Positions 31,790 through 47,660 of a stretch of 64,000 nt of DNA are shown one piece after another. Origin of the DNA: Vulcanimicrobiota bacterium (lineage in GTDB: Bacteria > Vulcanimicrobiota > Vulcanimicrobiia > Vulcanimicrobiales > Vulcanimicrobiaceae). The stretch spans positions 288,001-352,000 of the forward strand of contig CAWETW010000001.1 of NCBI GenBank assembly GCA_963812155.1, given 5' to 3'. Positions within the stretch are counted from its first letter, which is position 1. Each line of letters begins with the position of its first letter. The translations under genes were made by a program, and so were the position numbers. A model generated the notes under the pieces. That model did not search any database and was not told the DNA's origin. It was given only the letters and a program-made list of their open reading frames with translations.

Positions 31790-35584
<3,795 letters not shown>

Positions 35585-35715
35585 GGGGTTGGGACTCCGT
35601 CGTTCGTGCTGCCGCAGCCGCCGCTGACGCAGGGAGCGCGGCTCACGTTGTCACGTAAGCGGTCCCACCGTTGCCGCTGGCCGCGAGGCGCCAAGACGCC
35701 CGGGCACGGTTTATG

Positions 35716-35744
35716 ATTATACTCGGGGGCCGCCTCGGGGGCAA
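35716..35744 (-). promoter_or_regulatory. sigma70-type promoter of rpoC
   Basis: TTGCCC-N17-TATAAT about 130 nt upstream of rpoC. Confidence 0.75.
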
Positions 35745-35858
35745 GGGCCGAGCAGGGTTAGGTAGCGGAACCCGTTCAAAAGTCGCAGGGCGTCTGGGAG
35801 CGGGCCCGCGGCTAGTCTAGATTGCCAGTCTGGGTCGGCAAGATCCGCGCTAGAGCTT

Positions 35859-35957
35859 TCAATGATGCTTGGCCCAGAGAAAAGAAACCAGGACTACCAG
35901 CAGGACGGTGCCGCAGATCATTCCCGTAGCGATGACTATGGCGGTCGGCAAGCTCAT
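35859..35957 (-). CDS. Unannotated 32-aa single-TM protein MSLPTAIVIATGMICGTVLLVVLVSFLWAKHH
   Basis: AAGAGGG SD, TM helix followed by KHH. Confidence 0.5.
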   Translation of the reverse strand: MSLPTAIVIATGMICGTVLLVVLVSFLWAKHH

Positions 35958-36099
35958 TAAAGACCCTCTTTCAGGCTACCCCCTGCTTACGGATTGCGAG
36001 CCTTTCGGGTTTCGGTGCGCGCTGACCACTTCCGCAGGGCCAGACGGAGCTCGGGTTTGGACGGTTGCTTGCATGGGCTGGCGGAAAGTGTGCATTGAC

Positions 36100-36267
36100 T
36101 CCTGTCACGGACGACGCGGTGTGACAACCGAGATGGCGCTGCGGCTCGCACATGCCTTCCAGACCTCCGCGCAGTATTGGCTCAACCTGCAGATCGCCGT
36201 CGACCTCTACGACGCCCAGAAATCCGACGTTTTTGCGGAGATCGAACGCCGGCCGGTGCTCGTCTAG
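36100..36267 (+). pseudogene. HigA/VapI-family antitoxin C-terminal remnant
   Basis: GRRGVTTEMALRLAHAFQTSAQYWLNLQ..DL; N-terminal HPG/HTH part and toxin gene absent. Confidence 0.75.
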
Positions 36268-36316
36268 CGCGAGGCGCTCGGAGAGTTATCGTACCGCGAC
36301 GCTGGCGTCGCCGCTC

Positions 36317-36863
36317 TCAAACGCTACAGCTTTGCAGATGGAGGTGCACGCGCTCGGAATCGATTGTGTTCGGCTCCAGTGTGAAACGCAGCGGTTCATC
36401 CGCGACGGCCGCCGCTGACAGGAATCGCCTGCAGCTTACACGCGGCCAGACGATCGCGCAGGACGAGCGCCGCGCTTGCGACCGATTCTCGATCGTGCCG
36501 ATTGAGTTCGAGCAGAATGCACGCGAAGCGCGCGCGGGTCGGGTCGTTTACGGTGCAGTCCCAGCCGTGAAACTCGACCGCGCTCGGTGTGCGCGAGCAT
36601 CCAGTTCATCGCGGGCCGGGAGAACTCGGCGTAGGTGCGCATGCCGGCGTGCGTGAGCACATCGATCGCTCGCAGGTTGCCGGGCGTTTGGCATGCAGCG
36701 CGCCGTGATAGACGGCGTAGTTGTCGAGGCCGCGGGGGTAGGCGGCGTAGACCATCGGCGTGCCGCCGAAATGCCGCAGCATCAGCGGCTGCGCGATGCG
36801 GTAGTACTCGAGATTGCGCTCGCAATCGGCGTGCGATATGTGATGGATGGGGGGGGTGAGCAT
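36317..36863 (-). pseudogene. Divergent LigD polymerase (AEP primase) domain-like gene, frameshifted and internally deleted
   Basis: LEYYRIAQPLMLRHFGGTP...YPRG; AVEFHGW...DPTRARFARILLE...AALVLRDRL; RVHLHLQS in different frames. Confidence 0.5.
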
Positions 36864-37192
36864 CGTTATGTTCCTGCAAGGCTCGTGCACTCCGTGTATT
36901 CGGAGCCCACGAAACGCGGCATCGCGCATGCAAACCCTATTTCACGCTCGCCTATGCGTGCGATGCCGCAATCGGTACTACGGTACGGCGCCACGTGCAC
37001 AGAAAATCCGGTCCCTTACCCCATTAAAGGCTTACGTCGCCGCTAACGGCCTTACGCTTTTCTCACGCTAGCCGCTCCCGCAGCCGCGCCGCCGGCGGCC
37101 GTGGGAGTTCGGCGATAGGTGTAGCCGGGAGCCCGTTCGATGCTGCCGAAACCCTCCGCGTACCTGAAACGTCAGGGTGAAAGGTAGGGTGT

Positions 37193-38110
37193 ATGCCCAC
37201 TCTTACGATCAATTACGTTTATTTCGGCGCGTCCGGGGCGCACACGCGCCAGCCGCGCGTCGTCAGCTCTTACGGCGGATTCACGCCCATCCCGGGTCTT
37301 AATCCCGGCGGCACCGCGACGCTGATGGCGGGAACGCCATATGAGCCCGGTTATCCGCCCGACCTCGACTCACAACACCTCGCTTACGCGTTCACGAACG
37401 TCTCCGGCTGTTTGGAGGGTCCGCGCACGTCGTACGTCGCGACCATGCTTCCTCCGGTCGGCACAGTTGGTAGCAATCCGATCGTCGTCAACTACGTCTA
37501 CGTTCCCACCGGCCATAACGGAAACGGCGGAACCGGCGCCGTCATCGATGCGTTCGACGCGAGCATCAACTCGCTGATCGATAACAACTTCGTAACGTGC
37601 ACTCCGGATCCGGGCGGCACCATCACGACCGAAGCGAACGTCGACGGTTGGGTGGATACGTCAAGCTCAGGACGCACCATCACTGCAGACCATCCGAATA
37701 TCGGAGGCTATGGAACGTGGTCGACCCTCCCGCTCTTCGATCGCTGGGTCGATCTCACCGATCCCGCGCCGCCATCGTCGCTGATTAGCGGTGCCAATCT
37801 TACGCCCGGACAAGGCGCCACCGTCTACGCACTCGCGTTCTATCACGATCCGATAAAAACCAAAGAGCACAAGGAGTACTTAGAAAAGAATCCGGCCGAG
37901 TACCTGAAGTCGATAGCCGAATACTTCAAGGGGCCGAAGGAATCGGTCGAAAATCCCGGATTCGGCAACATCGGCGATCCCGCGGAGGTGATCGGCGAGT
38001 TACGGACGCTCACCGTGCGGCTTGCCGGACTCGAGGCGCGCCTCGAGGCGTTCGGCTCGGCATTCATCAAAGCCGAAGACCGGCCGCAAACCCGGAAGCA
38101 GCAGCGGTAA
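37193..38110 (+). CDS. Hypothetical protein with beta-rich body and Lys/Glu-rich C-terminal tail (candidate ATP-grasp substrate)
   Basis: SD-like AAGGTAGG; tail KTKEHKEYLEK...FKGPKE, coiled coil, AFIKAEDRP. Confidence 0.8.
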   Translation: MPTLTINYVYFGASGAHTRQPRVVSSYGGFTPIPGLNPGGTATLMAGTPYEPGYPPDLDSQHLAYAFTNVSGCLEGPRTSYVATMLPPVGTVGSNPIVVNYVYVPTGHNGNGGTGAVIDAFDASINSLIDNNFVTCTPDPGGTITTEANVDGWVDTSSSGRTITADHPNIGGYGTWSTLPLFDRWVDLTDPAPPSSLISGANLTPGQGATVYALAFYHDPIKTKEHKEYLEKNPAEYLKSIAEYFKGPKESVENPGFGNIGDPAEVIGELRTLTVRLAGLEARLEAFGSAFIKAEDRPQTRKQQR

Positions 38111-38128
38111 CAGTGAGCGCGAGGAGCG

Positions 38129-38833
38129 TTGTTCCTCGTCCTTAGCAACTTGGCCAACGAGGCGGCGCGAGAAATGGTGGAGACGTTTCCACCTGGCGCC
38201 GCCTCGCTGGTCACCGCTTCCGAACTCGATCGTTCGTTTAAAGCGTCCGTTCGGTTCGGCGATTTTTCGTCCGCGACGTTGACGATCGACGGCGTCGAGA
38301 CGTCGCCACGCCAGGTCGAAGGCGTCGTTTCGACGATTGCCTATTTCCTGCCGCAAGAGTTTTACTACGTCGAGCCCGCCGATCGCGAGTATGTGCGAAG
38401 CGAAACCACGGCCTTCTTCATCTACTTCCTCTCGCAGCTTGCGTGCCCGAAACTCAATCCGCCGACGGCCAAGACGCTTTGCGGCTTGGGCATGCATCGC
38501 ATCGAATGGATGCGGGGCGCGCGTAACGCCGGCGTTCCGTTGCAGCGGGTGCGGACTCACGACGGACAAACGACGTACGACGATGTGCCGGATGCGAGGC
38601 AACGCGTGCGCGCGACGTGCATCGGCGACGCGATCGTCGAAGACCGCGTCCCCGACGCGGTTCGAGCGCACCTGCTAGCGCTATCCGAGGCCTTTCGAAT
38701 GCCGTACCTGTGCGCCGATTTCATTGCACCCGGCGACGGCGACTACCGCCTGGCCGATCTGTGGTCGGTTCCCGACGTCCGCGTCCCGGCAAATCGCGCG
38801 GCAATCGTGCGCTTCATGCGGGGCCGGCCGTGA
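38129..38833 (+). CDS. Degenerate ATP-grasp-like protein
   Basis: GAGGAG SD + TTG; DREYVRSE..AF...LNPP, but no FQE or EVN motifs; coupled to the next gene. Confidence 0.65.
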   Translation: MFLVLSNLANEAAREMVETFPPGAASLVTASELDRSFKASVRFGDFSSATLTIDGVETSPRQVEGVVSTIAYFLPQEFYYVEPADREYVRSETTAFFIYFLSQLACPKLNPPTAKTLCGLGMHRIEWMRGARNAGVPLQRVRTHDGQTTYDDVPDARQRVRATCIGDAIVEDRVPDAVRAHLLALSEAFRMPYLCADFIAPGDGDYRLADLWSVPDVRVPANRAAIVRFMRGRP

Positions 38834-39783
38834 TTTTGCTTTGGGGCTCAATGACGGACGAGCCGATGGTGATGGCACGCGCCGCATTGTTGCAGGCGGG
38901 CTACGAGCCGGCCTTTCTAGATCACGAAAAGGTCTTTACCTCGGTGCTTGATTGTGAAATCGACGACGCAGGCAGCCGCTGCACGGTGACCGCCGGCGAG
39001 GCGGTGGTCGAGATGGCGGCGGTCTCGGTTGCCTATGTGCGCGGCGCGAACTTCTACGACTACGACGAGATGCGCGACCTGCCACGCGATGCGCCTCTCG
39101 CGCAACGGGCAGCCGCGTTCGAAATGCAGTTGATGGCATGGCTCGACGCCTCGGATGCGGTCGTCATCAATAAATCGGGCCCCGCGGCGGCGAACAATTC
39201 CAAGCCCTATCAGCTGACGGCGGTCCGCAATGCCGGGTTTCACGTTCCAGAGACCTTCCTTACCAACGACCCCGCCGCCGCGCGCGCGTTCGTGTCGGCA
39301 CGTCGCGACGTCATCTACAAGTCCATCAGCGGAACCCGGAGCATCGTGCGCCCGCTCGACGAACGACAACGCGCCTTTCTCGACGACGTAAAGTGGTGTC
39401 CGACGTGTTTTCAGGAGCGACTTACCGGAATGAACTATCGCGTCCACGTGATCGGCGATCGCGTTCTCGCGCTTCGCATCGAATCCGACCAACTCGATTA
39501 TCGCTATGGCAACACCCGAATGGCGGAGACCGAGTTGCCCGACGACATCGCGCAGCGCTGCCGAGACATGACCGGCGCGATGGGACTGCATTTCTCCGGT
39601 ATCGACCTCATGCAGACCCGCGACGGCGAGTGGTTCTGCTTCGAAGTGAATCCGTCACCGGCGTTTTCCTACTTCGAGGCGGCCTCCGGACAGCCGATCG
39701 CCGCGGCACTGGCCCGGTTCCTGCTGGACCAACTCGCGCGCGCTGAAGATGCGGCGGCAAAGCGCGCGCTCCAGACCCACTAA
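38830..39783 (+). CDS. ATP-grasp ligase, RimK/MvdC-D (graspetide maturase)-like
   Basis: NNSKPYQL..GFHVPETFLTNDP, YKSISG, FQE..G..YRVHVIG, DYRY, FSGIDL, FEVNPSP. Confidence 0.88.
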   Translation: MILLWGSMTDEPMVMARAALLQAGYEPAFLDHEKVFTSVLDCEIDDAGSRCTVTAGEAVVEMAAVSVAYVRGANFYDYDEMRDLPRDAPLAQRAAAFEMQLMAWLDASDAVVINKSGPAAANNSKPYQLTAVRNAGFHVPETFLTNDPAAARAFVSARRDVIYKSISGTRSIVRPLDERQRAFLDDVKWCPTCFQERLTGMNYRVHVIGDRVLALRIESDQLDYRYGNTRMAETELPDDIAQRCRDMTGAMGLHFSGIDLMQTRDGEWFCFEVNPSPAFSYFEAASGQPIAAALARFLLDQLARAEDAAAKRALQTH

Positions 39784-39889
39784 TGCTGGCGGGCTCGGCG
39801 CACTGCGCTTAGGGTGACACAGGGGCGGTGTGCGCCTCCGCCCGGGGTCACCGCGCATGACCGGCGCGATTCGCGGGTACGACAAAGGC

Positions 39890-40402
39890 ATGAAGATAGG
39901 AATCATCGGCACCAACTCCCGCGCGGTCGCGATCGGCCGGCTGCTCGCATCGGGCGGCCATGACATTAGCTTCAGCGACGCCCAAAACAGGCAAGCCGCC
40001 GAGCGCGCGGCAAGTGACATCGGCGTGGCAGCGGAAAACGCCTACGACCAAGCAGTGCGCGACATTTTGGTATTCGCGTGTGCACGTTCTCAAATCGACG
40101 CGACCCTCACGGCTATAGGCTCGGGCGTTCACTGCATCGTGCTAGATGCGTTGGACGGCGGACCTGACGAACCGCATCGCGGCGCCGAGCTGCTTGCACG
40201 GAAGCTCGACACGCACGACCTCGTGCGCGCACTGATCGTGCTGCCGCAAACCGGCGCCAACATTCCGCTTTGTGGCGACGATCCCGCAGCCAAGGCCGTC
40301 GTGCAGCAGGCATTCGAAGCATGCGGCTGCATCACGAGCGACCGCGGCCCGCTCTCCAACGCAGCCGAGCTGGAACCGCACCTGACGAGCATCGCCGCGT
40401 AA
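39890..40402 (+). CDS. F420-dependent NADP oxidoreductase-like protein (short, degenerate Rossmann motif)
   Basis: MKIGIIGT..., LCGDDPAAKAVV...DRGPLSNAAELEP. Confidence 0.65.
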   Translation: MKIGIIGTNSRAVAIGRLLASGGHDISFSDAQNRQAAERAASDIGVAAENAYDQAVRDILVFACARSQIDATLTAIGSGVHCIVLDALDGGPDEPHRGAELLARKLDTHDLVRALIVLPQTGANIPLCGDDPAAKAVVQQAFEACGCITSDRGPLSNAAELEPHLTSIAA

Positions 40403-40436
40403 AGGCGAGCCTTTTCGCTTCGTCAAAAATGCCCGC

Positions 40437-41525
40437 ATGGGCAGAATGGTCAAAATTGCCGCATTCGCAACGGTTTCGGCCCTTGCGGCGTGTTCCAGCC
40501 CCGTAAGCCAACCTTCGGTTCCCGGCAGCCTGCAAGCAAAGAACGCAAAGGTTGCCGCGCCGTCAACGACCGGCCACTTGTTCGTTCGACGATCCGTGTC
40601 GCGCAACGCGCCGGCGGGATACGGTCCGGCCGATCTTCAAGCCGCCTACAATCTTCCGTCGAGCAGTAAAGGCAGCGGACAAGTCGTTGCGGTCGTCGAC
40701 GCCTACGACAACCCGAACGTTGCATCGGATCTGGCGACTTATCGCTCGACCTACGGTTTACCGTCCGCGAACTTCACGAAATATAACCAGGCGGGGCAGA
40801 CGAAGAACTATCCGCAGGCCGACTCGGCTTGGGGCACGGACATCGACCTGGCCGTCGAAATGATTTCCGCCTCATGTCCGAACTGCACGATCGATCTCGT
40901 CGAAGCGAACTCGAGCAGCGTTTCGGATCTCGAACAGGCTGAATCGGAAGCCGTCGCGCTCGGCGCGCACGTCGTCACCAATGGATTCGCCGGTACCGGC
41001 TTCGATCAATCGTATTTCGATGCCAACGGTGTGACCTATCTTGCGGCTTCGGGCGACGGCGGATTCGGGTCCGTTCCCGAACCGGCCGCATTCGGCAGCG
41101 TCGTGGCGGTCGGAGGCACGACGCTCACGCGCGGCGGCGAAAGCCGCGGATGGAAAGAAACCGTTTGGCCAGACGCAGGCAACGGTTGCACAACGTTCCC
41201 CAAGCCGCCGTGGCAGCATGACAAGACGTGTGCGTATCGCTTAGCCAACGATGTCTCGGCCGTCGCGGCTCCGACGCCGGGTGTTGCCGAGTACGACAGC
41301 TACGGTGCCGGCAGATGGTTCCTCGTGGGTGGCACCAGCGTAGCGACGCCGCTTCTCGCCGGTGTCTTCGGCTTAGCCGGCAATGCGAATAAACAAAACG
41401 GTGGCAGGACGTTTTGGCAATCGTCCCACCACCAATATTTGTATCGTTTGAAGAGCGGAGGGAAGTTCGTCCGCTATTCCGAGGCCGGTGGCTGGGGCAG
41501 CCCCGACGGCATCGGCGCGTTTTAG
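40437..41525 (+). CDS. S53/S8 family peptidase-like lipoprotein
   Basis: Lipobox LAAC; GYGPADLQAAY, VAVVDAYD, ASGD, VGGT, GGTSVATP, GWGSPDG. Confidence 0.85.
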   Translation: MGRMVKIAAFATVSALAACSSPVSQPSVPGSLQAKNAKVAAPSTTGHLFVRRSVSRNAPAGYGPADLQAAYNLPSSSKGSGQVVAVVDAYDNPNVASDLATYRSTYGLPSANFTKYNQAGQTKNYPQADSAWGTDIDLAVEMISASCPNCTIDLVEANSSSVSDLEQAESEAVALGAHVVTNGFAGTGFDQSYFDANGVTYLAASGDGGFGSVPEPAAFGSVVAVGGTTLTRGGESRGWKETVWPDAGNGCTTFPKPPWQHDKTCAYRLANDVSAVAAPTPGVAEYDSYGAGRWFLVGGTSVATPLLAGVFGLAGNANKQNGGRTFWQSSHHQYLYRLKSGGKFVRYSEAGGWGSPDGIGAF

Positions 41526-41538
41526 CGCACTGCGCGTC

Positions 41539-41685
41539 CTTCGACTGCGCGCCTGCGGGCGCTCCGCTCAGGATGACACCAAGTGGCTTCGCTTAGGATG
41601 ACAGGGGAAGTCCTTCGCTCAGGACGACACAGGGGGCGCGCGCTCCTCTTAGTGTGACACAGAGGAGCGCTGCGCTCGGGTGATG
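41539..41685 (+). repeat. Cluster of REP-like repeats (one full, several partial copies)
   Basis: CTTCGACTGCGCGCCTGCGGGCGCTCCGCTCAGGATGACAC, then CTTCGCTTAGGATGACA, CTTCGCTCAGGACGACAC, CTTAGTGTGACAC. Confidence 0.8.
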
Positions 41686-42132
41686 CTAGGGGCTGTGGAC
41701 TTGTTTGTGGAGTTCGTGAAGATCTTCGAGCGAGTTTAGGGTTACCGCATCGTTCACGGACTCGTTCTTTAGCCCCATCTCCGAGCGCATGCTCTTGGCG
41801 AGTTCGGGCGCATGGTTGTATCCGTGAATCGACGCGTTATGCTTGCGAATCGTCTCCGCGTCGGTCTTACCGTTGCTGACGACGTACTCTTCGAACTGCA
41901 CGTACGTCGGCTTGTGCGTGCGCACGTACTCCATGACTTTCTCGCGGTCGAGGCCGAGATTGTCGATCGTCATCTGATCGAAGCCGGCGCCGCAATGGTC
42001 CCAGCCGTCGGCCAGTTGGTCTGAATATCCCAGCGTGAGCTTCGTCCACAAACGCGGCAAATGCGCTGCGCCGATCGGTCCGGTGGTCTGCGAACTGATG
42101 TAGGGAATTTGTTTTTGCGCGGTGCTAGGCAT
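41686..42132 (-). CDS. DUF5069-like protein
   Basis: PYISS..GPIGAAHLPRLW.K...G.GFDQM....LGLD...KPTYVQFE. Confidence 0.65.
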   Translation of the reverse strand: MPSTAQKQIPYISSQTTGPIGAAHLPRLWTKLTLGYSDQLADGWDHCGAGFDQMTIDNLGLDREKVMEYVRTHKPTYVQFEEYVVSNGKTDAETIRKHNASIHGYNHAPELAKSMRSEMGLKNESVNDAVTLNSLEDLHELHKQVHSP

Positions 42133-42136
42133 GAGT

Positions 42137-43024
42137 TTACTGGTCCTTTCCATGACGCGAGATGAAAGTGAGTTCCGACACGCCGGATTTATCGAGTTCG
42201 CCGAGCCCGAGGCGTTTCATGCGTTCGAATTGTTCGTACGTGGCGCGGGCCAACGGCAAACGCAGGCCGGCCTCTTCGGCCAGGCCCAGCGCGATGCCCG
42301 AATCCTTGGCCGCGTGCGCTGCTGAAAAGTAGACGTCGTGTTCTCGATTCTGCATATCGGCGCCGTCTGTTTCCAGAACGCGCGAATTGGCTCCGGTCTG
42401 CGAAAAGATTTCCCGGACGACCTCGAGATCGAGCCCGAGGGCGTCGGCGAGGCCGAGCCCTTCGGCCAGGCCGGCCGTGTTGACGTTCATCACCATGTTA
42501 ACGAGCGCTTTGACTTCGGCGGCCTTACCCGCCGGTCCGACGTATTTCAGCGACGAACTCATCGACTCGAGCAACGGTTTGACGGCAGCGAACGCTTCCT
42601 CGCGGCCGGCGACCATCAAATACAACGTGCCGTTGCGCGCCTGCGGAATCGAACTGGCCATGCAGGCTTCGAGCGCCCGCGCTCCGCTTGCCTCGGCGCG
42701 CCGCTCGACTTCGACGTGGACCTTCGGTGCAATCGTCGCGCAGTTGACGAAGATTTTTCCCCGCGCGCCTTCGAGCAGCGAATCGCCGGACGTTGGGAAG
42801 ATTGCATACATCGCATCGTCGTCGCTCACGACGGTAATCACGACGTCGGAGAGTTCGGTGACGCGCGCGAGCGACGTCGCGACTTCGCCACCCGTTAGCC
42901 GTGCCGTTTCGGCAGCCGCTTGCGGCCGGACGTCGTAGAGCGCCGCCACCGTGTAGCCCGTATCGTTGAGCCGTTGGGCGATATTGGCGCCCATGCGCCC
43001 GGTGCCGACGATGCCGATCCTCAT
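42137..43024 (-). CDS. 3-hydroxyisobutyrate dehydrogenase family NAD(P)-dependent oxidoreductase
   Basis: GIVGTGRMG, KALVNMVM, AAKDSGIA. Confidence 0.88.
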   Translation of the reverse strand: MRIGIVGTGRMGANIAQRLNDTGYTVAALYDVRPQAAAETARLTGGEVATSLARVTELSDVVITVVSDDDAMYAIFPTSGDSLLEGARGKIFVNCATIAPKVHVEVERRAEASGARALEACMASSIPQARNGTLYLMVAGREEAFAAVKPLLESMSSSLKYVGPAGKAAEVKALVNMVMNVNTAGLAEGLGLADALGLDLEVVREIFSQTGANSRVLETDGADMQNREHDVYFSAAHAAKDSGIALGLAEEAGLRLPLARATYEQFERMKRLGLGELDKSGVSELTFISRHGKDQ

Positions 43025-43096
43025 GTCGACGGGGAGGTTCCCCTCGTATTTGCGAGCAACCTTCGAGCTATTCTGCTACTACAGGAGGAGGATCTC

Positions 43097-43654
43097 ATGC
43101 GCATTCATTGGGGCTTAACGATGGTGGCCGCCCTCGCCGTTGCGGCGCTTCCGCTGCACGCTCCGGCTCAGATCGAAAGCACGCCGGTGCCCGCACCACA
43201 GAAACCCAACCTTTCTTCGATGGCGTTTTTGGTTGGCTCGTGGTCTTGCAGCACCAAGAGCGCCCGCCGGCCCGCGGCGTACATGACGACGTCCACGTAC
43301 ACGATGGACCCGTCCGGCTACTGGCTCGACGAAACGTCGGTCACCACTCCGAATTCGTGGATCCCGGCGAAGATCACCGTTAACGATAAGTACACCTACG
43401 ATTCCGACGCGCATCGCTGGGTCGACCTCACCTACGGACAAGGCGGGGCGTACGGATTGGCGTTCTCATCCGGCTGGAACGGCGACAAAATCAGTTGGCA
43501 CGACGTAAGTTTTGCGCCGACCGCCGAAATTTCGTCGCAAACAAACAACACGATTACGAAAGTCAGCAGCTCGAAAGTAACCTTCGCATCGTCATTTACC
43601 GAAGCAAAGACCGGCCGGCACGTCGCCGTCACCGGAAGCTGCACGAAGCAGTAG
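43097..43654 (+). CDS. Secreted hypothetical protein (DUF1579-like beta barrel)
   Basis: GGAGGAGG SD, signal peptide, FLVGSWSC...GSCTK. Confidence 0.75.
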   Translation: MRIHWGLTMVAALAVAALPLHAPAQIESTPVPAPQKPNLSSMAFLVGSWSCSTKSARRPAAYMTTSTYTMDPSGYWLDETSVTTPNSWIPAKITVNDKYTYDSDAHRWVDLTYGQGGAYGLAFSSGWNGDKISWHDVSFAPTAEISSQTNNTITKVSSSKVTFASSFTEAKTGRHVAVTGSCTKQ

Positions 43655-43678
43655 CTGACACCCTGTGCGGCACGGGTT

Positions 43679-43710
43679 AAAAAAGTAGCCCCGCTTTACG
43701 CGGGGCTACT
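43679..43710 (-). terminator. Rho-independent terminator of rpoB
   Basis: 11-bp stem AGTAGCCCCGC/GCGGGGCTACT with a T run on the minus strand. Confidence 0.85.
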
Positions 43711-43718
43711 CCTTCGTC

Positions 43719-43786
43719 CTTCGACTGCGCGCCTGCGGGCGCTTCGCTCAGGATGACACCCTGTGCGGCTTCGCTCAGGATGACAC
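43719..43786 (+). repeat. REP-like repeats downstream of rpoB (full + partial)
   Basis: One mismatch to the 41539 copy, then CTTCGCTCAGGATGACAC. Confidence 0.8.
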
Positions 43787-43793
43787 CGTCTGA

Positions 43794-47660
<3,867 letters not shown>

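Follow-up and report, generated by a model that had tools for sequence, protein, structure and literature searches.

A candidate C-terminal stapling tag on folded proteins beside a graspetide-type ATP-grasp pair in Vulcanimicrobiota and other lineages

The three-gene cassette and its encoded proteins

The 64,000-nucleotide stretch of Vulcanimicrobiota DNA analyzed here (the window; GenBank assembly GCA_963812155.1, contig CAWETW010000001.1, positions 288,001 to 352,000 of the forward strand) contains three co-directional genes, named A, B, and C, the first of which encodes a protein with a Lys/Glu-rich tract and a short C-terminal tag, while the other two encode relatives of graspetide synthetases (Table 1; all positions are those of the window). 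A preliminary description of this DNA had proposed a compact operon, and the gene order and the overlap of B and C (GTGA) were confirmed, although the gap between A and B is 18 nt according to the coordinates and not 19 nt as given there. The three genes form a portable, conserved cassette, and since dozens of unrelated proteins carry the same tag next to the same enzyme pair, the tails of whole proteins are the likely targets of stapling by these enzymes.

Protein A is free of Lys over residues 1–221, whereupon residues 222–251 hold 7 Lys and 6 Glu, so that the abrupt switch from body to Lys/Glu tract noticed earlier was borne out (Lys share 19% in the tract vs. 0.4% in the body). Among 979 long Arg-poor open reading frames (ORFs) of the genome, a 30-residue window with ≥ 7 Lys and ≥ 13 Lys plus Glu was found in one, and a Lys-free run of 221 residues was common (100/979). 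The AlphaFold2 model of A (predicted local distance difference test, pLDDT, 81.9) has two beta domains, for which the best structural match of domain 1 (VIA Z 6.8, root-mean-square deviation (rmsd) 2.2, 68 residues aligned; Atlas lead 0.76) and the match of domain 2 to the pilin CnaB-type BcpA (VIA Z 5.2, rmsd 3.5, 89 aligned) were not clear of background. For A, Foldseek returned nothing at E ≤ 0.001, neither A nor B had a match in Pfam, NCBIfam, or PHROGs, and a hydropathy screen detected no signal peptide on A. In the 82 matching proteins retrieved, the body is 34–81% identical over three phyla, and a common pattern was seen: conservation over the first 220 residues, then a tract of variable length and sequence, and finally a constant end (GDP, helix, AFIKxxDRPxVG). 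The tag was present in 73/80 classifiable homologues, the remaining 7 having a different tail. Among these homologues the tract is not bordered by any conserved cleavage motif; self-cleavage at the Asp-Pro bond of GDP was considered and rejected, as many cyanobacterial tails lack GDP and the motif fits a helix cap.

The nearest solved relatives of C are PsnB (E 1.9e−35), followed by MdnC, CdnC, PruB, MdnB, and AMdnB, with RimK at 1e−4. Of the two affinities suggested before, MvdC/D-like or RimK-like, the graspetide synthetase side was therefore retained, with six such enzymes ranking above RimK, and the RimK side was not. Ten residues (R71, K125, K164, Q195, R204, D223, R225, D259, E272, and N274) are invariant in 51/51 aligned C homologues. 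Among them, R71, R204, and D223-Y-R225 (with Tyr as the middle residue) correspond to Arg72, Arg213, and the D(F/W)R loop of PsnB, to which the available part of the PsnB study ascribes core binding and catalysis (bioRxiv 10.1101/2021.03.09.434688). We consider it very unlikely that C acts instead as a RimK- or amidoligase-like enzyme that adds free amino acids or an amine to the tract carboxylates, or couples A with another molecule. The acid-rich tract and a score above the Pfam RimK cut-off (PF08443, 27.5 vs. 21 bits) would agree with such an activity, but C falls far under the RimK-family cut-offs (TIGR00768, 49.8 vs. 143.4 bits; NF007764, 21.5 vs. 331 bits), both B and C are closer to graspetide synthetases in sequence and fold, and the concentration of Lys in the tract would not be needed.

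B had been described as a degenerate ATP-grasp, and this assignment holds. It has no sequence match in the PDB either; a shallow B profile failed to align with C (0.6%), and a deeper one aligned along B (profile–profile probability 97.5%, E 5.3e−12), with the lid and the equivalents of D259, E272, and N274 missing. The nearest folds to the B model (pLDDT 93.7) are PruB (Z 18.1, rmsd 2.9, 224 aligned), MdnC (17.6), PsnB (17.5), AMdnB, and CdnC (Z 16.5–18.1 for the five), with RimK at 14.6. B is thus a lidless, catalytically degenerate paralogue of graspetide synthetases, in which a patch formed by D85, R86, Y88, and E92 is invariant.

Table 1. Features of the cassette in the window
Feature	Position	Strand	Description
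Gene A	37193-38110	+	ATG start, 305 aa; tagged protein, predicted substrate
A domain 1, aa 1-109	37193..37519	+	Beta-grasp module, weak fold match to MucBP / InlB B-repeat / SraP stalk domains
A domain 2, aa 112-220	37526..37852	+	Beta-sandwich, weak likeness to pilin CnaB-type domains
Lys/Glu tract, aa 222-253, predicted core	37856..37951	+	6/7 Lys with Glu at +4; length hypervariable among homologues
Amphipathic helix after GDP, aa 263-286	37979..38050	+	Heptad pattern; predicted packing on B
C-terminal tag GSAFIKAEDRP, aa 288-298, predicted recognition sequence	38054..38086	+	Family consensus FIxx[EQ][ED]RPxVG
Gene B	38129-38833	+	TTG start, 234 aa; graspetide-synthetase fold, lid deleted, catalytic residues lost
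Gene C	38830-39783	+	GTG start, 317 aa; intact graspetide-type ATP-grasp ligase
Cassette stretch recurring elsewhere on the chromosome of the same-genus genome G180	37124..39741	+	78% identity

Association of the tag with the ligase pair

The counts of tagged proteins given here cover loci reached via A homologues, via C, or in sampled genomes. From 53 metagenomic A loci, ten were dropped (eight cut inside A, one frameshifted, and one with 19 nt downstream), and in the others B lay directly downstream of A in 34/36 tagged vs. 0/7 untagged homologues, or 0/9 untagged when two further genome cases lacking B and C were counted. When species genomes were scanned with C and the best 80 of 174 loci used, B lay upstream of C in 79/80, the 80th being cut by a contig end. 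The motif [FY][IVL]x4RP occurred near the end of the gene before B in 76/78 readable loci, compared with 3/1280 other ORFs in the same loci; upstream candidate genes were chosen with a preference for the motif, for which the background ORF count serves as control. In one of the two misses (L151) the tagged gene lies after C. The tag is C-terminal to the tract in 76/76 tagged proteins, an order opposite to the N-terminal leader recognition known from graspetides, and Lys makes up 12.8% of the stretch before the tag vs. 2.3% of the bodies (76 loci). A profile of the tail run over 702 genomes (401 from the window's own phylum and 301 from the phylum of locus L119) gave 13 matches, and all nine that covered the motif stood beside B; the other four were weak, helix-only, and without B. 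Linkage of tail homologues to paired ATP-grasp genes, as anticipated in the preliminary description, was thereby supported. A single tag per genome was found in 6/6 genomes examined, including the window's own, so that no substrates in trans were found there, and a word-indexed tail search recovered A-family proteins only from 8000 scored candidates.

The two tagged homologues without B stand alone between argF and argG (L028:6001-7023 and L030:6001-7026), and L028 retains what is probably the decayed beginning of a B gene. At L018:7764-8149 (genome G097) a deletion remnant joins the first 42 codons of A to the last 70 codons of C. At L151:5102-7390 and in L179 a large gene that has a VRP1 domain and resembles a Tc-toxin A-type subunit comes after the tagged gene downstream of C.

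The bodies that precede the tail are unrelated to each other, and the expectation that one tail rides variable N-terminal domains ahead of B and C was borne out by proteases, Kelch proteins, a tyrosinase, and DUF6519 proteins. Among 34 scanned tagged bodies, two subtilases, one M6 protease, three Kelch proteins, one tyrosinase, Ig repeats, and six DUF6519 proteins were recognized, and many had no Pfam family. Within the genus of the window, a 660-aa Kelch-type body, one of the matches of the tail profile, bears the tail ahead of B (L172 and L180, G131), and in the archaeon Ca. Nitrosopumilus salarius a tyrosinase with tract and tag is followed by B and C (L104:2656-4293). Four cyanobacterial cassettes (L095, L099, L132, and L139) lie behind a gene for a 358-aa rubrerythrin-domain protein, and their tagged body has no Pfam family; it may be Makarova's cluster 948. 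In Pseudomonas sp. PIC25 a second, more distant ATP-grasp gene comes after C (L148:6165-7241).

The tagged bodies look extracellular, yet they have no signal peptides, and a subset lies near genes of contractile injection systems. One tagged gene follows a Tail_P2_I gene (L117), another precedes a core gene of an extracellular contractile injection system (eCIS; L149), a third lies 9 kb from Baseplate_J (L106), and a fourth locus closes a sheath–baseplate operon (L131). In a genome search Baseplate_J was located within 10 kb in 1/5 distant loci tested, and a direct scan added a second. Divergent tail-like operons ending in a tagged gene plus B and C were also observed in Myxococcus, Amycolatopsis, and Kribbella (L176, L177, and L178), with Baseplate_J and sheath matches in L177 only and similar-looking genes in the other two. 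For the A of the window, a role as eCIS fibre is unsupported: it has no Pfam or PHROG match, its neighbours are not tail genes, and the DUF6519 cluster of the same genome is untagged and on another contig. This eCIS-like cluster was seen at about 522000-545000 of contig C3 of the window's own genome (G000), where the DUF6519 gene is seemingly frameshifted; sheath (PF04984) was not found in this 84% complete genome.

A model of the complex of C, B, and A242–304 scored 0.73, and the best of three controls, including one with C replaced, scored 0.00. The mark used for this score is reached by 116/157 solved vs. 2/215 mismatched pairs, a calibration that is rough for three chains with their own alignments; partner pLDDT values were 55–58 and the runs agreed in ≥ 44% of contacts. 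In the model, helix and tag (A269–298) are sandwiched between B 74–92, which holds the most conserved residues of B, and C 163–192, which includes 6/7 positions equivalent to the pocket that receives the leader Phe (LFIEDL) in PsnB. The patch D85, R86, Y88, and E92 of B is accordingly predicted to grip the tag, and the Phe-Ile of the tag to be seated in the pocket that corresponds to that of PsnB. The modelled docking supports the view, already put forward in the preliminary description, that the C-terminal FIxxEDRP is a recognition tag.

The cassette lies between rpoB and rpoC as previously stated, but these genes are separated by 8.2 kb (window 35584-43794) and oriented on the opposite strand, with several other genes in the gap, and the position is not conserved. 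In related genera rpoB and rpoC are spaced by a few hundred bases, and the interval is an accessory-gene hot spot in the genus of the window. Because G180 keeps the remaining rpoB–rpoC block and houses the cassette elsewhere on its chromosome, and only G143 among five full loci compared shares the site, the placement is incidental and a functional tie to rpoB and rpoC was rejected. A subtilase gene (40437-41525, PF00082) is found on the same strand 654 nt downstream of the cassette, so that the reported absence of a protease applies to the cassette but not to its surroundings. As the subtilase of G180 remains in the rpoB–rpoC block without the cassette, it is not a cassette member but part of the older block, and was rejected as a dedicated protease. 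The closest named homologues come from Eremiobacterota, a scan for promoters and terminators remained at chance level, and plasmid sequences searched with C at E 1e−30 gave no match. Upstream of A, the ORFs 35869-36267 (+) and 36606-36929 (−), without Pfam match, are presumably remnants, the former similar to a HigA-type antitoxin and the latter to the beginning of a LigD polymerase domain. Two short interspersed repeats (window about 41530-41680 and 43710-43795) have many copies in the same genome and genus.

The proposed reaction and competing explanations

The tract (aa 222–253) supplies what graspetide synthetases use, an adjacent ribosomal substrate with repeated donor and acceptor residues, and its regular Lys–Glu spacing (Table 1) was reached in 0/20000 shuffles. 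Across 49 non-redundant A tracts, an acid follows at +4 for 209/456 Lys (vs. 19% when shuffled), and for 110/354 of the Lys without another Lys at +3. The KxxE spacing of the MyxF type was rejected for the A family, as an acid at +3 is depleted (14% vs. 19%). Lactams within one chain are favoured for A because the +4 spacing of Glu matches that of the Lys-Asp lactams of corallotide. In the reaction that we propose, a B–C heterodimer would clamp the helix and the FIxxxDRP tag of A, and C would use ATP to join Lys to Glu side chains within the tail tract, an acyl-phosphate forming on Glu and being attacked by the Lys four residues earlier. Up to six lactam staples would result and be retained on the folded protein, the tail of which would become stiff and protease-resistant. 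Such a reaction would be located in the cytoplasm, since signal peptides are absent from the tagged proteins. That C makes Lys-Glu lactam staples within one chain of A, guided by tag and B, has in our judgment an even chance of being correct; the acyl-phosphate route, the ring formation, and the persistence of the staples on the protein are what we infer.

Amides could also form between chains: the helix would bundle A in twos or threes, and C would cross-link the tracts so that covalent oligomers or a polymer arise, which would suit trimeric fibres. A heptad pattern is present ahead of the tag in 52/77 tagged proteins, six tagged proteins belong to DUF6519, described in the available text as the eBAP5 anchor of trimeric eCIS fibres (PMC12923769), and other tagged genes close tail-like operons. 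Moreover, tract periods across tagged proteins range from 2 to 5, and the synthetase ThfB is able to make cross-linked protein dimers (PMC13003496, available part). We nevertheless regard such bundling as unlikely, as the heptad pattern is missing in 25/77 tagged proteins, the DUF6519 fibres among these, the helix is spent on the B-binding surface in the complex model, and the strict +4 spacing in A suits rings within a single chain.

[quoted passage not shown] Most known graspetides are released peptides, the tract is hypervariable and core-like, several tagged bodies are proteases, and stand-alone tract-plus-tag precursors of about 120–160 aa are listed in the available supplement for RODEO group 32 (PMC13097080). 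However, the body stays conserved over three phyla while the tract drifts, the flanks lack a conserved cleavage motif, and no C39 peptidase or peptide exporter was detected in the cassette or in the 95/197 neighbouring ORFs scanned (E 1e−8). Many bodies, such as the tyrosinase and the fibre anchors, also have functions of their own, and untagged homologues retain the body, all of which makes excision improbable.

Several observations weigh against the stapling of A within one chain and against its extension to all tagged proteins. The score of the complex may owe something to the solved leader complexes of MdnC and PsnB, the job was unlike those of the calibration, and the tract itself was left unplaced in the model. 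C stays below all curated cut-offs for graspetide maturases (TIGR04187, its highest-scoring curated model, 148.7/350 bits; TIGR04185, 84/425; TIGR04184, 80.5/475). In 38 tracts of bodies other than A, an acid at +4 follows 60/268 (22%) of the Lys without Lys at +3, vs. 27% when shuffled, and in all tract sets an acid at +1 is as enriched as at +4; as a Lys-acid-x repeat explains the acid at +4 in the non-A bodies, the spacing of i to i+4 may lack generality. A few tagged proteins (L109 and L142) have almost no tract, and tagged A persists without the ligases in L028 and L030. The linkage counts include kin: on the body tree, untagged and ligase-free homologues occupy at least three places, two of them with known context, so that few independent events lie behind the untagged cases. 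In addition, the same clade contains short precursors that consist of tract and tag and lack a folded body (rows of group 32 in the available supplement), hence a peptide may be released. We find it plausible, if a little short of an even chance, that a C-terminal cassette of ~80 residues (Lys/acid tract plus FIxxxERP tag) makes any protein a substrate of an active/dead ATP-grasp heterodimer, which would leave it stapled through isopeptide bonds and still folded, the stapled tail having a common purpose (stiffening, covalent bundling, or leaderless release) in proteases, oxidases, adhesin-like proteins, and fibres of injection systems of bacteria and an archaeon.

Known graspetide systems and published catalogues

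The tag names a candidate substrate in nearly every locus of what is probably an ATP-grasp branch for which a published survey predicted no precursor. If the proposed stapling is correct, graspetide chemistry would extend from released peptides to the natural modification of folded proteins, a dead-paralogue adaptor would be added to the partners known so far, and enzymatic Lys-Glu stapling would gain a genetically encoded tag. It would also provide a natural C-terminal follower, so far an engineered device: the available text on ThfB reports that an engineered follower, termed unnatural there, functions with this enzyme, which cyclizes proteins as well (PMC13003496).

The survey in question, as far as its available text extends, describes for branch 8 a truncated inactive ATP-grasp and unrelated peptidases, supposed to cut other proteins, and a precursor that was not predictable (Makarova et al. 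2022, PMC8939145). Lyngbya aestuarii BL J (L140) and Ca. Nitrosopumilus salaria BD31 (L104) are listed in this branch, as is Nostoc PCC 7120, and its truncated inactive ATP-grasp corresponds to B; in contrast to that description, the peptidases and other bodies bear the tract and tag themselves. Identifiers of the present loci were not found in the available Table S2 of that survey. RODEO group 32 is characterized in the available part of a later catalogue only by diverse neighbouring proteases, with no member characterized (Carter et al. 2026, PMC13097080). It includes Nostoc parmelioides FACHB-3921 (L132) and Nostoc sp. PA-18-2419 (L146), and C homologues at 36–39% identity come from four organisms listed in branch 8 or group 32, all these correspondences being by organism name alone. 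In the supplement to that catalogue, 12/43 group 32 rows list a tract-plus-FI..RP peptide or fragment and 31/43 other short ORFs, while the long tagged proteins are not given as precursors among the 43 rows examined. Some group 39 precursors there have an N-terminal FI/FV..RP motif, followed by a Lys/acid tract and then a Pro-Gly-Asp or GDP linker and a helix (PMC13097080). The enzyme clade and some short precursors are therefore already catalogued, and the folded tagged substrates are unassigned in the texts examined. No description of the C-terminal tag on folded proteins and no tested member came up in our literature search, outside of which fall Iyer 2009, Lee 2020, Ramesh 2021, and the Carter 2026 supporting PDF; any of these could alter the judgment of novelty, and the motif may already appear in the group 32 figure of the last.

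Among characterized systems, PsnB/PsnA2 (plesiocin), MdnC/MdnB (microviridin), CdnC, and PruB resemble the cassette in the sequence and catalytic residues of C and in the fold of B, and systems of the PsnB/MdnC type share with it a Phe-centred recognition motif (with a predicted pocket in C) and repeated donor and acceptor residues. The cassette differs from them in its C-terminal motif, in a folded substrate of 200–1300 residues, in the lidless dead-paralogue partner, in that no peptidase-containing ATP-binding cassette transporter (PCAT) was seen, and in the scores of C below curated cut-offs; many graspetide loci also lack a GG motif, C39 peptidase, or exporter according to the available survey text (PMC8939145). 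The RimK alpha-L-glutamate ligases have the ATP-grasp fold, the PF08443 match, and a protein substrate in common with C, and differ from it by the family cut-offs that C does not approach, by its graspetide-type residues, and by a substrate with internal Lys/Glu repeats. Corallotide (group 15) and rosaritide (group 21), as described in the available part of Carter et al. 2026, also have lactam repeats of the Lys(i)-acid(i+4) kind, a precursor that is large and folded in its N-terminal domain, and synthetase activity that requires a partner protein; in corallotide the lactams are of the KxxxD type, the 22 kDa precursor has an N-terminal domain that is helical, and the synthetases are partner-dependent (PMC13097080). 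In these two, however, an oxygenase and a SurA-like chaperone act as partners instead of a dead synthetase, the enzymes are bound by the N-terminal part, and the precursors are confined to one genus without body swapping. Myxomiditide (MyxF/MyxD1/MyxD2; PMC12848669) likewise has Lys-Glu lactams on repeats and ATP-grasp paralogues whose activity requires that they form a complex, and is distinguished by its KxxE spacing, N-terminal PFF leader, and catalytic MyxD2.

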